11,612 nt of DNA from a virus: the UHGV virus genome UHGV-1980575; one strand, written 5' to 3'. Shown here piece by piece: positions 1-5,129 of the stretch (position 1 is its first letter; every line of letters starts with the position of its first letter). A program made the translations under genes and the position numbers. The notes beneath the pieces were generated by a model, which saw only the letters and a list, made by a program, of their open reading frames with translations, made no database searches and had not been told where the DNA came from.

Positions 1-1377
1 TCATACGTCAGCCCCTTGTGCATATCGTCTGCCACGCGCAGCAGGTGCATTTGATGCTGTGCAAATCTGTCTGGCTTCGTCTTGGTCACATGCAACAAAG
101 TGTCCGTTGCAGAATCGCTGGTAAACCGTACCAAGCGAGCCAAAACGGTTTTTCGTCACGATGATTTCAGCAAATGGCGCGGCGCTACTGTTCTCGTCAT
201 ATACCGCTTCCCGATAGAGCATGATGATTGAGTCTGCGTCCTGTTCAATGCTTCCTGAATCACGCAAATCTGCGTTTGTCGGGCGTTTGTTTGGTCGCTT
301 CTCAACATCGCGCGAAAGCTGACTCAGGGAGATAACAGGCGTTTTCAGGTCTTTCGCCATCGCCTTAAGGCTTCCTGAGATGTGAGCAATTGCGAGGTCG
401 TTACGGTCTGCTTTCGGCTTCTCAATCAGGCCAAGATAATCCGCCATGATTAGTGACAGGTTTGGATTTTCCTGTTTATGCCGTTCTGCGATTGAGCGTA
501 TTTCTTCGACCGATAACCGCGAGGCATCGACTACCCATACATCCAAATCTGCAAGCTGACTCATGCCGTTAGCAACACGCGCCCAGCCTTCGTCATCCAT
601 CGATGCAGGATTTCGCAGCACGCTAACCGACATCCTCCCGGCGTTGGCAATGCTCCGCTCTGCAATCTGCAATGCGCTCATTTCCATCGAAAAAATCAAC
701 ACTCCGCGCCGGACGTCAGAACCAGGAATAACGCGGCTTGCAACGCCTTCGGCAATCTTCAGCGCCAGTTCGGTTTTCCCCATACCAGGACGAGCGGCGA
801 TTATCACCAGGTCTTCCGCGTTCATCCCTCCGGTGATAGCGTCAAGTTCTTCGATTCCGGTCTTCAGGGTATCGGACTCTTCTCCGTTCCTCAGACGCCT
901 GTCAAGCGTGTCAGTGTAGTCAGTTATGATTTCCCCTAACCGTACAGGTTTAACCTCGTCACGGGGCTTTCTGATGGCTGAAAGACGCTTTACAAGTTCA
1001 TCCATCGCCTGACTCGATGCGTCGATGGTTCCGCTCTGAATTGGTTCACGCATTTCATCCATGATTTCCAGCACCAGACGGCGGTGATAGTTATCCGCGA
1101 CCATTCCGGCATATCCCTTCAGGTTTGCGGAACTCGGGCAGTTTTTGCTGGTCATCAGGATTGACGTGAAATGCTCCTCTCCGCATTCCTCAGCAACCAT
1201 CAGCGCGTCGATTAGGTTTCTGTTTCGCGCCTGCTTGCGGATAACCTCGAAGGCTTTCCGGTAGAGCGGAATTGAAAACGCCTCCGGCTCCAGCGTTGCC
1301 AGAACGTCGCTGGCAGTTGGCGTTAATCCACCAATCAGCAGGCCACCGATAACGCTCGCTTCGATATCCTGTCTCAT
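1..1377 (-). CDS. DnaB-family replicative helicase, phage-encoded (P22 gene 12-like)
   Basis: 458-aa ORF with Walker A-like ARPGMGKTE and typical DnaB C-terminal domain. Its start overlaps the O-like stop (ATGA at 1374-1377); its stop codon is bases 1-3 of the window. Confidence 0.85.
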
Positions 1378-2204
1378 GCTATCCCCCTGTCTGCAAACTT
1401 CCCTTCCCGAACTCCCGTTAACGAATCTTCCCTCAGCAGGTAATCAAAATCTGCCGTCCAGCCCGTGTCGTTGTCTCCGAAGTAAAACGGCTTGGCCTGA
1501 TGCACAAACGCCCTGACATACGCTCTGAAACCGTCCACGTTTGGCGTTTTCAGTTGCGGGATGATTTTCTTCAGGCGGCGTTTGCGTTTCTCGTTGACCG
1601 CAACAGCGTGTGGAAGTCTGTCACCGACTTCGGTGTTGTAGGCGTTCAGGAAGGATTCGTAGTCGATTCGTTCTGCCTTGCGACGTTCAGGTTTAACCTG
1701 CCCATCGCCGCCCCCGTTAGGGGGTAAGGGGGTATTTGTATTTATTGTCTTTTGTATATTGTCTTTTGTGTTTGACTGATTCGGTAAATTGCTTTTTACC
1801 GATTTGGTGAAGGTTTGTTTTACCGAATTGGTAAATGTTTTACCGAATCCGTTAACTTTCGTTTTCCACTCGGAAATGTTTGTATTCATACCAACTTGAC
1901 GCCCCACCTGAATGAGAACTCCCATTCTGATAAGCTCGTTTTTGGCGGTAGAGCATTTGGTTGGTGCCATGCCAGTGAGTTCAGCGAACTGTTCGTTTCC
2001 GATCCAATCTATTTTTTTGTTGTAACCGTATGTCTTGCGCCACACAGCCATAACAATCAGTAACTGATGTAGAGTAAGTCCAGAAAGCATGGCGGCTTCT
2101 AACAGTGTGTTTGCAGTCCGAGTGTAGCCATCTTCGAGTTCTGCCACGCGATGCTCCACGACCTCCAGTTGAGGCCTGTAATCAGCTAACTTAACGACGC
2201 CCAT
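1374..2204 (-). CDS. Replication initiator, lambda O-like (P22 gene 18-like)
   Basis: N-terminal domain resembles lambda O ([27 protein letters not shown]). AGGAG sits 6 nt upstream of the ATG. The low-complexity linker is encoded by the iteron DNA. Confidence 0.8.
1738..1856. repeat. Candidate replication origin: 20-bp-periodic iterons plus AT-rich repeat block inside the O-like gene
   Basis: TTTTACCGATTTGGTGAA (1794-1811), TTTTACCGAATTGGTAAA (1818-1835, perfect palindrome) and TTTTACCGAATCCGTTAA (1838-1855); partial inverted copy TTCGGTAAA at 1780-1788. Adjacent AT-rich block carries ATTGTCTTTTGT twice (1744-1769). Same arrangement as lambda ori within O. Confidence 0.55.
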
Positions 2205-2352
2205 GTTTCACTCCTGCTTTGGCTAGTCTGTAAACACCAACAAGGCGCTCTGCGAACGCCCTGTTATTTGCTGCGGCTACCACTAATCCCTCAGGTGAAT
2301 CAGGGTGTCGAATCTCTTCTTTTTCCTGGTATTTCTTACGACGTTTTGTCAT
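2191..2352 (-). CDS. Small basic hypothetical protein (53 aa) between cII and the O-like gene
   Basis: Hand-translated [61 protein letters not shown] is 5 nt upstream of the ATG at 2352; the 3' end overlaps the O-like start by 14 nt. Below the 60-aa cut-off of the ORF track. Confidence 0.4.
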   Translation of the reverse strand: MTKRRKKYQEKEEIRHPDSPEGLVVAAANNRAFAERLVGVYRLAKAGVKHGRR

Positions 2353-2386
2353 AATTACTCCTGTGGATTGATCCAGTCTTTCTACA

Positions 2387-2665
2387 TCAGGCCTCGAAGA
2401 ATTCGCCGTTCTTCGGGGCTTTTTCTTTTGTCAGCATTCTGGCTACTTTCTTAGCCAGTTCCGCCAACTCCTCGTCTTCAACACCCCATTCAAGAACAGC
2501 CAGAAGCATTCCCATTTTTGGGATGAAGCTGTCTTTCCATCGCGAAATTTGCGATTCATTAATCCCTAACGCGTCGGCAACCTTTCGCTGACCACGCACA
2601 GCAATTCTATTCAGGATGTTGCTTGTAATTGCATTCGCTTTCTTGCGAGTACTTGTAAGTTCCAT
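2387..2665 (-). CDS. cII: CII transcriptional activator (92 aa)
   Basis: ESQISRWKDSFIPKMGMLLAVLEWGVEDEELAELAKKVARML closely parallels lambda CII. Start chosen at MELTSTRKK (ATG at 2663-2665) with AAGGA upstream; the longer 121-aa ORF from 2752 would overlap nutR. Confidence 0.8.
   Translation of the reverse strand: MELTSTRKKANAITSNILNRIAVRGQRKVADALGINESQISRWKDSFIPKMGMLLAVLEWGVEDEELAELAKKVARMLTKEKAPKNGEFFEA
2392..2429 (+). terminator. Intrinsic terminator on the plus strand overlapping the cII 3' end; candidate terminator of an oop-like antisense RNA
   Basis: 10-bp stem CCTCGAAGAA / TTCTTCGGGG (one G-U pair) with 7-nt loop, followed by CTTTTTCTTTT. On the minus strand the hairpin is preceded, not followed, by the T-run, so it terminates only the plus-strand transcript. 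Confidence 0.5.
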
Positions 2666-2773: not shown

Positions 2774-2959
2774 TTATGCCGCTTTGCGGTAAGCGCTTTC
2801 TTGATACTTCAGGGCGCCAGCTGTAACGACTTCCAGTCGATAGGCGTCTTTCTCTGGGATGACTTCCTTCCACTGAGAGACTGCTGCGTCGCTAATGCCT
2901 AACGCTTTAGCTACAGCACGCTGGGTTCCGAAGTGGTCGATAACATCTTTCTTGTACAT
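2774..2959 (-). CDS. cro: Cro repressor (61 aa), P22 Cro-like
   Basis: MYKKDVIDHFGTQRAVAKALGISDAAVSQWKEV... with HTH, recognised from memory as near-identical to P22 Cro. GGAG upstream of the ATG; divergent from cI across the operator region. Confidence 0.85.
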   Translation of the reverse strand: MYKKDVIDHFGTQRAVAKALGISDAAVSQWKEVIPEKDAYRLEVVTAGALKYQESAYRKAA

Positions 2960-3039: not shown

Positions 3040-3690
3040 ATGAAAACTCAATTGATGGGAGAGCGCATTCGCGCTCGGAGAAAAGAACTCAAGATCAGGC
3101 AGGCCGCACTTGGAAAAATGGTCGGCGTGTCTAATGTTGCCATATCTCAGTGGGAACGCTCTGAGACAGAGCCAAATGGAGAGAATCTTCTCGCCCTGGC
3201 TAATGCGTTGAAGTGTTCCCCTGACTATCTGATGAAAGGAGAGGAAAGTCTTTCAAACATTGCCTATCACAGTAGGCATGATCCAAGAGGGTCATACCCT
3301 CTGATTAGCTGGGTGAGCGCAGGATGCTGGATGGAAGCTGTAGAACCATATCATAAGCGTGCAATAGATAACTGGTACGATACAACCGTAGACTGTTCAG
3401 AAGATTCGTTTTGGTTGGACGTGAAGGGAGACTCAATGACGGCTCCGGCCGGTCTCAGTATCCCTGAAGGAATGATAATACTCGTCGATCCTGAAGTAGA
3501 GCCGCGTAACGGGAAACTGGTAGTTGCAAAGCTCGAAGGAGAAAACGAGGCAACTTTCAAGAAGTTAGTTATTGATGCAGGCAGGAAGTTTCTAAAACCA
3601 CTTAACCCACAATATCCGATGATCGAGATCAACGGAAACTGCAAAATCATCGGCGTAGTTGTCGATGCAAAACTAGCAAACCTTCCATAA
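3040..3690 (+). CDS. c2: Prophage repressor CI (P22 C2-like; LexA/S24 autocleaving family)
   Basis: 216 aa with N-terminal HTH (QAALGKMVGVSNVAISQWE), Ala94-Gly95 (VSAGCW) as putative RecA-stimulated cleavage site, and a GDSM serine motif with downstream lysines. From memory near-identical to P22 C2. Confidence 0.9.
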   Translation: MKTQLMGERIRARRKELKIRQAALGKMVGVSNVAISQWERSETEPNGENLLALANALKCSPDYLMKGEESLSNIAYHSRHDPRGSYPLISWVSAGCWMEAVEPYHKRAIDNWYDTTVDCSEDSFWLDVKGDSMTAPAGLSIPEGMIILVDPEVEPRNGKLVVAKLEGENEATFKKLVIDAGRKFLKPLNPQYPMIEINGNCKIIGVVVDAKLANLP

Positions 3691-3896: not shown

Positions 3897-4207
3897 ACCA
3901 AAGAGTAGTTGGCTTTGGGGTGACGTGAAGTGCAGCTGCACGACGGCAACCGGAAGATAAGCACCCGGCGCGTCACCGCCAAAGTCAATTCCATGGGCGA
4001 AATGCAGCCGCCAAACACAGCCAATGCTGCACATGCAACAGGAGGATTTATGTGAATGCATAACTTCAAAACCGAGGTTAATTAAATCTCTCGATCCGAG
4101 CATCGACCTATTAGTTGGCGAGATGCTCTTTCTGCCCCTCAATTCGAGGGGCCAGAAACCACTTTGCAATCACTATCAATTCCAAAGTTGTTTCATCGGA
4201 GGTCAAC

Positions 4208-4507
4208 ATGACAGTAGTCATTACATATCTGGCTGACGATAACGCCAGAAATCGCCGCAGAGCACGCAGACAGGCTCAACGTGAACAGGCAATGCAAGAG
4301 CAGCGACTGGCGCAAAAAATTGCGCTAAAGCTCTCTGGTTGCGTCAGAGCAGACAAAGCAGCATCACTCGGAAGCCTTCGCTGCAAGAAGGCAGAAGAAG
4401 TCTATCATAAACAGAATCGTATTTACTACCGCAAGCCACGCAGTGAAATGGGTGTGACTTGTGTTGGTCGCCAGAAAATGAAATTAGGCAGCAAACCACT
4501 TATTTGA
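4208..4507 (+). CDS. N-like antitermination protein (99 aa) with N-terminal arginine-rich motif
   Basis: MTVVITYLADDNARNRRRARRQAQREQ... gives an ARM within the first 25 residues, as in lambda N. GGAGG is 5 nt upstream of the ATG at 4208. First gene downstream of PL and nutL. Confidence 0.7.
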   Translation: MTVVITYLADDNARNRRRARRQAQREQAMQEQRLAQKIALKLSGCVRADKAASLGSLRCKKAEEVYHKQNRIYYRKPRSEMGVTCVGRQKMKLGSKPLI

Positions 4508-4515
4508 GGTGAGAT

Positions 4516-4986
4516 ATGACAAAATCATGGAGCGTACCTTTTTCTGAATCAGAAACTGAACATGATGGAATGCCTGTTTTCTGGAGATTCCAGGCGACAG
4601 TTGAAGAAGATGGGATAAAAATATTCGCACTTCAATATATAGCTTTTCATCAGACAGAGCATTATGCATGGTTGGTTCCTGCGCATTGGATTGTTAATTT
4701 TAAACCAGCACCAAATCAGTGGTTACAGGAATGGAAACAAAGGAGAAATAGATATGCAATTAAGAAAGTAGCAAAAAATGCAGAAAGATCTTTTGCATTC
4801 CCAACGAAGAAACTTGCTATTGAAAGTTTATTGCGCCGGAAGAAATACCATTTAATGAGAATAAAACAAGATTTGGCTGTTGTATCAACTCTTGTTGATG
4901 GGATGAAAAATATTGATACATCAACACCAGATATTGAATATAACTTTGGACACAACCAAGAAACAGAAAATTGGGTATTTTATTAG
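4516..4986 (+). CDS. Hypothetical protein (156 aa), AT-rich orphan gene in the N-cIII accessory slot
   Basis: GAGGTGAG is 2 nt upstream of the ATG, directly after the N stop. Codon composition is visibly far more AT-rich than the flanking genes. No family recognised. Confidence 0.55.
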   Translation: MTKSWSVPFSESETEHDGMPVFWRFQATVEEDGIKIFALQYIAFHQTEHYAWLVPAHWIVNFKPAPNQWLQEWKQRRNRYAIKKVAKNAERSFAFPTKKLAIESLLRRKKYHLMRIKQDLAVVSTLVDGMKNIDTSTPDIEYNFGHNQETENWVFY

Positions 4987-5017
4987 TACGAATAAGCACT
5001 GTGTATTCATTCCAACG

Positions 5018-5129
5018 NNNNNNNNNNNNNNNNNNNNNNNNNNNNNNNNNNNNNNNNNNNNNNNNNNNNNNNNNNNNNNNNNNNNNNNNNNNNNNNNNNN
5101 NNNNNNNNNNNNNNNNNNNNNNNNNNNNN
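5018..5129. other. Assembly gap (run of 112 N)
   Basis: Literal n characters in the sequence; every ORF crossing it in the six-frame track is an artefact. Confidence 0.99.

Follow-up and report, generated by a model that had tools for sequence, protein, structure and literature searches.

A small gene of the HK97 Gp53 family overlapping the O-like replication gene in a mosaic lambdoid prophage

Introduction

Whether a short reading frame located between two larger phage genes is itself a gene, and what its product could do at that place, is not obvious from its length. This question is raised by a frame of 53 codons between the cII-like and the O-like gene in the virus genome UHGV-1980575. 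The window analyzed here is the whole stretch of 11,612 nt from this genome. Its sequence identifies the window as part of a mosaic P22-like/lambdoid prophage, namely the region for immunity and replication, which is read on the minus strand. Its best matches over the whole length are E. coli chromosomes, none of which covers more than 78% of the window. The genes around the junction are the following:

3040-3690, plus strand: cI/c2-type repressor gene
2774-2959, minus strand: P22-type cro gene
2387..2665, minus strand: cII/c1-type activator gene, 92 aa (PF05269 match from residue 30 of a 121-aa ORF)
1374..2204, minus strand: O-like replication initiator gene of the P22 gene-18 type (PF04492 Phage_rep_O, phrog_345)
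1769-1865, within the O-like gene: iteron-like direct repeats TTTTACCGAAT..., spacing 20-24 nt
1-1377, minus strand: DnaB-type helicase gene

The start of the cII gene is taken as the ATG at 2665 and not the one at 2752, because the Pfam match begins only at residue 30 of the listed 121-aa ORF and the annotated homologues in mEpX2 and vB_EcoP-611R6 have coding sequences of 279 nt. The 29 extra codons of the listed ORF would run over the nutR/PRE region. The repeats at 1769-1865 are probably the replication origin, in line with its annotation inside gene 18 of P22. Elsewhere in the window, the translations of the region from about 4960 to 5100 consist of runs of X in all frames. This suggests, as judged from the translations, a masked or undetermined stretch, probably of Ns.

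Results

The small ORF and the signals that surround or overlap it are the following:

2191..2352 (stop included), minus strand: 53-aa ORF, member of the HK97 Gp53/Sf6 gp42/PHROG 1331 family (ORF list, profile match and comparison)
2358..2362, minus strand: Shine-Dalgarno sequence AGGAG of the small ORF, read from the sequence, with a 5-nt spacer (2357-2353) before the ATG
2211..2215, minus strand: Shine-Dalgarno sequence AGGAG of the O-like gene, 6 nt before the O ATG and within the small-ORF codons A-G-V
2191..2204, minus strand: 14-nt overlap between the small-ORF end and the O-like start, ATGGGCGTCGTTAA, made up of the last codons and the stop of the small ORF
2236-2266, minus (sense) strand: hairpin of 12-13 bp, found by folding, at codons 30-38 (NRAFAERLV), with the 12-bp stem AACAGGGCGTTC-GCA-GAGCGCCTTGTT at 2239..2265
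2327..2355, plus strand: putative oop-type (Po-like) promoter, TGGTAT, 17 nt, TGtCATAAT, matching the promoter annotated in P22-pbi
2363..2430, plus strand: putative oop-like antisense RNA, overlapping the cII 3′ end and ending in an intrinsic terminator

The ATG of the frame is at 2352-2350 on the minus strand, and its TAA, at 2193-2191, lies 10 nt beyond the O ATG. The first-pass annotation had described an ORF at 2191-2352 between cII and the O-like gene, preceded by a strong ribosome binding site and overlapping the O-like start by 14 nt. Reading of the sequence confirmed these coordinates, as well as the AGGAG with its 5-nt spacer at 2362-2353 and the overlap at 2191-2204. The product had been called rich in Lys and Arg, and 14 of its 53 residues are indeed K or R. 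The Shine-Dalgarno sequence of O is retained as GGAG or GGGG in those divergent homologues whose sequence was read. Sequestration of the O start in an mRNA structure was considered and is not supported by the local fold (z = -1.6).

The small ORF was also said to lie opposite the promoter region of an oop-like RNA. The plus strand carries an extended -10 element, TGtCATAAT, at 2347-2355 (TG at 2347-2348, CATAAT at 2350-2355), in which CAT is the complement of the ORF ATG, and a terminator follows downstream. The same layout is annotated in P22-pbi, where the homologous promoter and terminator take the same relative places. The position given in the claim is thus correct. The Po-like -10 covers the small-ORF ATG and the -35 covers codons 8-10. 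The -35 element TGGTAT is poor, a generic sigma-70 scan gave no site, and the annotation in P22-pbi was made by homology. The terminator scan and folding placed an intrinsic terminator stem at 2389-2421 on the plus strand, followed by a T-run (-27.2 kcal/mol, z = -5.6); among the hairpins of the window it ranks in the top two. Alignments and the scan therefore show an oop region that is conserved with lambda and P22 and has a strong intrinsic terminator in the cII 3′ end. The 5′ end of the putative RNA was placed by homology to lambda oop, to which it presumably corresponds. Rfam holds no oop family, and none of its families matched the oop-like region of the window.

The segment around the small-ORF start is shared with lambda and P22 in the alignment (ACTGGATCAATCCACAGGAGTAATTATG.CAAA). 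Its ATG starts O in lambda, the 53-aa ORF here and in HK97, and Orf48 in P22. The cII-oop-O junction of lambda resembles that of the window in the sequence ACTGGATC.ATC.ACAGGAGT.ATTATGACAAA, with Shine-Dalgarno sequence and ATG opposite the oop promoter, and in the position of the oop terminator inside the cII 3′ end. It differs in that the ATG starts O directly, without a small ORF, as stated by Hayes et al. (PMC3349717). P22 Orf48 and its HK022 homologue (DUF2740, PF10872) occupy the same slot behind the same upstream 33-nt boundary, which includes the Shine-Dalgarno sequence, the ATG and the first codons. Orf48 further resembles the window ORF in its overlap with the Po promoter, in a stop that overlaps the O start (by 8 nt in Orf48), in its length of about 50 aa, in the predicted two-helix hairpin of its product and in the presence of a sense-strand hairpin. 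The two ORFs share ACCAGGA (codons 8-10) at the opposite-strand Po -35 and no similarity beyond it. Remote homology was considered and rejected: BLASTP gave no alignment, hhalign gave a probability of 0.7%, and the window ORF has no Pfam match, whereas P22 Orf48 matches the Pfam DUF2740 profile with an E-value of 2e-28.

The ORF list of the window contains many spurious ORFs of the same size, so a frame of 53 codons is by itself not beyond chance. It is the comparative evidence, not the length, that identifies the small ORF as real. Related loci (n = 100) were collected by tblastn from 80 IMG/VR contigs, from 17 genomes that belong to various species of Enterobacterales and from phage records. 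The reading frame is intact in all 100 of them. The products are 52-55 aa long and represent 16 distinct proteins, and indels among the homologues are in frame only. By the Nei-Gojobori method, the pooled pS is 0.56 and pN 0.18, which gives a pN/pS of 0.31 and a dN/dS of about 0.19, with synonymous sites near saturation. Pairwise dN/dS values against the window copy are 0.08-0.30, with pS reaching 0.6-0.75. The other five frames of the same alignment have pN/pS values of 1.3-2.2 or contain stop codons and show no coding signal; the small-ORF frame is the only one free of stops in all 23 distinct sequences. Variable columns are distributed as 36/29/54 over the three codon positions. Purifying selection is seen in every sub-region of the ORF and is strongest in codons 13-38. 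Only in the last ~8 codons, where the Shine-Dalgarno sequence and start of O are also encoded, is pS lowered (0.29). Six nucleotide variants coding for the identical protein each differ by one synonymous and no non-synonymous substitution. These data show that the frame is under purifying selection at the protein level. The check that the first-pass annotation had proposed, conservation together with the synonymous versus non-synonymous pattern in relatives, clearly favours a coding gene.

Loci chosen by the upstream 23-nt boundary alone (see below), a choice without bias to intact copies, contained 61 intact gp53-type frames and one frameshifted one. The latter, in the IMG/VR locus L149, has a 22-aa product and is followed by intact O and helicase genes. 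Either this frameshift arose in sequencing, or it indicates that the phage can do without the gene.

A frame that is open by chance could be conserved through the DNA and RNA signals that overlap it, namely the oop promoter, the hairpin and the ribosome binding site of O. Such signals are present: the first ~10 codons overlap the Po promoter, and ACCAGGA is common even to the unrelated orf48 of P22; codons 30-38 form the hairpin; and the last ~8 codons hold the Shine-Dalgarno sequence and start of O, with the reduced pS. Between these signals, however, third positions vary highly and first and second positions are nearly fixed. The absence of stops in this frame only, the restriction to in-frame indels and the dN/dS of about 0.2 also speak against this explanation. 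It is effectively refuted by the selection and frame comparisons, and we regard it as extremely improbable. Limited literature searches found no ribosome-profiling or proteomics data for the small ORF; that the protein is made is supported indirectly by the purifying selection.

The product of the small ORF matches phrog_1331 over its entire length (E-value 1.4e-37, residues 1-53 on profile positions 1-53 of 53), a family labeled 'unknown function' in PHROG. It is 100% identical to Gp53 of HK97 and gp42 of Sf6, and the gene is therefore referred to as gp53 below. Homologues in many Stx-converting phages are likewise 100% identical and are annotated as hypothetical proteins. The exact protein is encoded on at least 1000 contigs in public data. 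The 271-nt region is found in 958 of 5426 complete E. coli genomes, and in 523 of these the match spans 80% of the query or more. The first-pass annotation had regarded the ORF as unlisted and likely to be missed by default annotation. This was mistaken, since the ORF is gene 53 of HK97, gene 42 of Sf6 and PHROG 1331, and RefSeq calls it as 'hypothetical protein' in the E. coli records listed. The ORF did fall below the length cut-off of the ORF track, which was only the limit of that first stage itself. It is almost certain that the small ORF is a real, already catalogued gene. The gene call as such adds nothing new: annotation of this protein dates back to the deposition of the HK97 genome, and the gene is called by current pipelines.

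The relatives of gp53 in HK97 (gene 53), Sf6 (gene 42), ES18 (gp58) and epsilon34 (gp49) agree with it in length, in position between cII and O and in the 14-nt overlap with O. The window copy differs from those of HK97 and Sf6 in being joined to an O gene of the P22 gene-18 type and not of the HK97 or Sf6 type, and otherwise in nothing of substance. The organization 'cII-oop-orf-O-P' is already described by Hayes et al. (PMC3349717), where the orf is given as naturally absent from lambda and HK97 gp53 homologues are mentioned. An exhaustive HMM search of 1.84 billion representative proteins returned 24 clusters at 50% identity, all equally short, and no fusions of the family to O or other domains. 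The gp53 family is restricted to lambdoid phages and prophages of Enterobacterales. Nothing relevant came out of literature searches on gp53/HK97, hkaW, DUF2740, 'boundary sequence' or the peptide sequence. A possible match, the 'orf48' of Silas et al. (gnarl1, PMC12373910), proved to be a library number, and the sequences of gp53 and P22 Orf48 are absent from the supplements.

No match to gp53 was found in Pfam, NCBIfam or the PDB sequence profile. AlphaFold2, run with the family alignment, gave a model with a disordered basic tail at residues 1-19 and helices at 20-29 and 31-49, at a mean pLDDT of 68 (77-85 in the helices), which corresponds to modest confidence. We infer from this model that the product may consist of a disordered basic tail (1-19) and a two-helix hairpin (20-49). 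Foldseek searches with the model against BFVD and PDB returned nothing at E <= 0.001; four BFVD matches at E-values of 3.6-9.8 and none in PDB were obtained with this model of modest confidence. An N-type arginine-rich RNA-binding peptide and a Rop-like helical hairpin were considered as candidates, and there was no Pfam, PDB sequence or PDB Foldseek match for either. A two-helix hairpin is also predicted for DUF2740, with a pLDDT of 82, an analogy of limited weight for proteins of 50 residues.

The sense-strand hairpin inside gp53 has a folding energy of -18.4 kcal/mol and is among the four strongest 31-nt hairpins of the window on either strand. Its codons, NRAFAERLV, encode the most conserved part of the protein. 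In 18 distinct homologues, 88% of the cells pair, compared with 83% in shuffles, none of 500 of which reached 88%, and with 38-47% for slid partners. Pair 7-21 is G-C in seven homologues, C-G in six, G-U in four and U-G in one, and the change from G-C to C-G is compensatory. The C-G version goes with an Ala-to-Pro change and may reflect a single evolutionary event. The gp53 peptide alone already favours about 8.5 of the 12 pairs. The native codons give a stabler stem than synonymous recodings in 14 of the 18 sequences (P 0.001-0.05), which are not phylogenetically independent. The hairpin is missing from the two most divergent homologues; in one, a hairpin forms in a shifted register.

Similar elements are found in the other genes that start at this boundary. 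The DUF2740 ORF forms the hairpin CAGCCTGG-N6-YCGGGCTG at codons QPGRFRAE (in P22 orf48 at about 1850-1875 of locus L001). The third positions of its stem hardly change between Salmonella, Klebsiella, Pluralibacter and Cronobacter, and those of the loop vary. Lambda O contains a 10-bp hairpin at codons 9-17 (about 413-436 of locus L226). In gp53, DUF2740 and lambda O alike, the stability of the hairpin in the sense strand is about double that in the antisense strand, and the hairpin beats synonymous recoding (P 0.001-0.03). An identification with the lambda element 'ice' was given up, since ice lies within cII according to the lambda record. Two more very strong local hairpins of about -18 kcal/mol were noticed in the window. 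One, at 4128-4159 on both strands, is located directly before or inside the start of an N-like ORF (4115-4507), whose product contains NARNRRRARRQAQ; the other, at 1678-1734, adjoins the origin repeats.

It is conceivable, although improbable, that the hairpin at the cII-O junction of the pR mRNA is an undescribed cis element, maintained by codon choice in gp53, in DUF2740/Orf48 and at the 5′ end of lambda O. Such an element would regulate the message of the replication genes at the level of processing, stability or translation. The gp53 and Orf48 products could then be its RNA-binding partners, acting as Rop-like or N-like mini-regulators of O expression or of oop-cII antisense control.

The hairpins and overlaps also bear on the possibility that gp53 is a cis-acting leader cistron with a functionless peptide. 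Its translation would then matter in itself: it would supply the O start with ribosomes, open the hairpin and prevent Rho-dependent polarity. Consistent with this, the stop overlaps the O start in both unrelated families, by 14 and 8 nt, gp53 begins at the initiation region of lambda O, and a translating ribosome would open the sense-strand hairpins in gp53, DUF2740 and the lambda O 5′ end. In its sequence the arrangement resembles the translationally coupled overlapping cistrons of the ATGA/TAATG type known from phage and bacterial operons: the first cistron stops shortly beyond the start of the second and contains the Shine-Dalgarno sequence of the second in its coding sequence. It differs from them in that O has a strong Shine-Dalgarno sequence of its own, so that coupling would not be obligatory. 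Selection at the amino acid level and near-saturated synonymous sites in codons 13-38 are unexpected for a mere spacer and argue against a pure leader, which we consider rather unlikely.

Every gp53 homologue, including the most divergent, lies directly upstream of a Phage_rep_O gene and overlaps its start. The overlap is 14 nt in essentially all of them; Rahnella has 17 nt, and the most divergent member has 26 nt. The gene upstream of gp53 is usually cII-like, with exceptions in loci L006, L009, L016 and L019. DUF2740 also stays with O, at an 8-nt overlap, even when another gene intervenes before cII. When gp53 lies upstream, the first 10 codons of O (2175-2204, minus strand) are shared across at least three different O types; with DUF2740 upstream, O has a different N-terminus, MSN.... 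The N-terminus of O is thus co-inherited with gp53, which places a mosaic junction about 10 codons into O. In the window, an HK97-type gp53 and this N-terminus precede the remainder of an O of the P22 gene-18 type. The N-terminus contains a V-V-K-L motif, which may resemble the N-terminal ClpX recognition motif of lambda O (TNTAKI). The three main O clusters that occur with gp53 also occur with DUF2740, each small gene is found with several types of helicase, and a search for specificity of gp53 for a single O or helicase type found none. Its pairing with at least three O clusters and several helicases indicates that gp53 is an independent module and not the partner of one initiator type.

The 23-nt boundary upstream of gp53 (ATCAATCCACAGGAGTAATTATG), which comprises the oop 5′ end and Po -10, the Shine-Dalgarno sequence and the ATG, is found in more than 120 viral contigs of IMG/VR. 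In 120 contigs with the exact 23-mer (loci L101-L219, for example L188, L201 and L160), the gene behind it is of the gp53 type in about 62, of the DUF2740 type in about 48 and of the T5orf172 type in 6. The T5orf172 gene encodes a 214-aa protein with this GIY-YIG-like domain, and the next gene belongs to a different O cluster, with a 29-nt overlap. The Sf6 record labels the conserved segment as 'bsq5 boundary sequence'.

These data raise the main rival explanation, that gp53 is a cargo gene in a recombination hot-spot. The Po/SD/ATG boundary would be a plug-in site, the product would target the host or competing phages (takeover, anti-defence or exclusion), and the tie to replication would lie in the operon only. 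Three unrelated cargos behind an identical 23-mer fit this proposal, and so do the shared O and helicase clusters of gp53 and DUF2740, the lack of any such gene in lambda, the boundary annotation in Sf6 and the 100% identity of gp53 across phages that differ in their cII and O genes. Against it, gp53 lacks a promoter and a terminator of its own, its stop and the O start overlap in every case, and the module includes the first ten O codons. Furthermore, the small ORF remains with O where another gene parts the slot from cII (L230; L006, L009, L016 and L019). PADLOC profiles gave no match to gp53 at E <= 1, in a library that holds defence proteins and not anti-defence proteins. Overall we hold the cargo explanation to be possible but less than probable.

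Discussion

We consider that the data as a whole are best explained by a bona fide gene of the gp53 family that is expressed early, is coupled to O and has an accessory role in trans, and we lean slightly towards this explanation. As read from the sequence, gp53 starts at the conserved Shine-Dalgarno sequence and ATG that initiate O in lambda and is the first cistron of the O-helicase block. Its position immediately upstream of O, with overlap of the O start, places it on the early rightward (pR-type) transcript, from which it would be translated early together with O. Ribosomes that end at the TAA (2191-2193) could re-initiate on the O ATG 10 nt upstream, and we infer that O synthesis may be coupled to that of gp53 by termination and re-initiation at the overlap. 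The basic two-helix peptide would probably serve early development as an accessory factor that acts in trans and is dispensable.

The likeliest site of its action would be replication initiation, since the linkage is invariably to O rather than to cII. The peptide could act there via nucleic acid or via a factor common to all O types, for example a host factor, and would not be a cofactor of one particular O type. A role that is both replication-linked and in trans is put forward tentatively. Lambda replicates without any such gene. Unrelated DUF2740 and T5orf172-domain genes fill the same slot, which suits a general cargo slot as well as a role in replication. Part of the sequence conservation of gp53 is owed to the overlapping nucleic acid signals, namely the Po promoter, the hairpin and the Shine-Dalgarno sequence and start of O.

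The only leads to something new are the hairpin common to three unrelated coding contexts and the exchangeable, O-coupled slot. With its region present in 958 of 5426 complete E. coli genomes, gp53 is among the most widespread small genes in the lambdoid prophages of E. coli, Salmonella and Shigella, including Stx-converting phages. It is located where the lysis-lysogeny switch (cII/oop) meets the replication genes. Under strong purifying selection and always coupled to O, yet replaceable by an unrelated 48-aa gene and missing from lambda, gp53 is a clean case for experiments.
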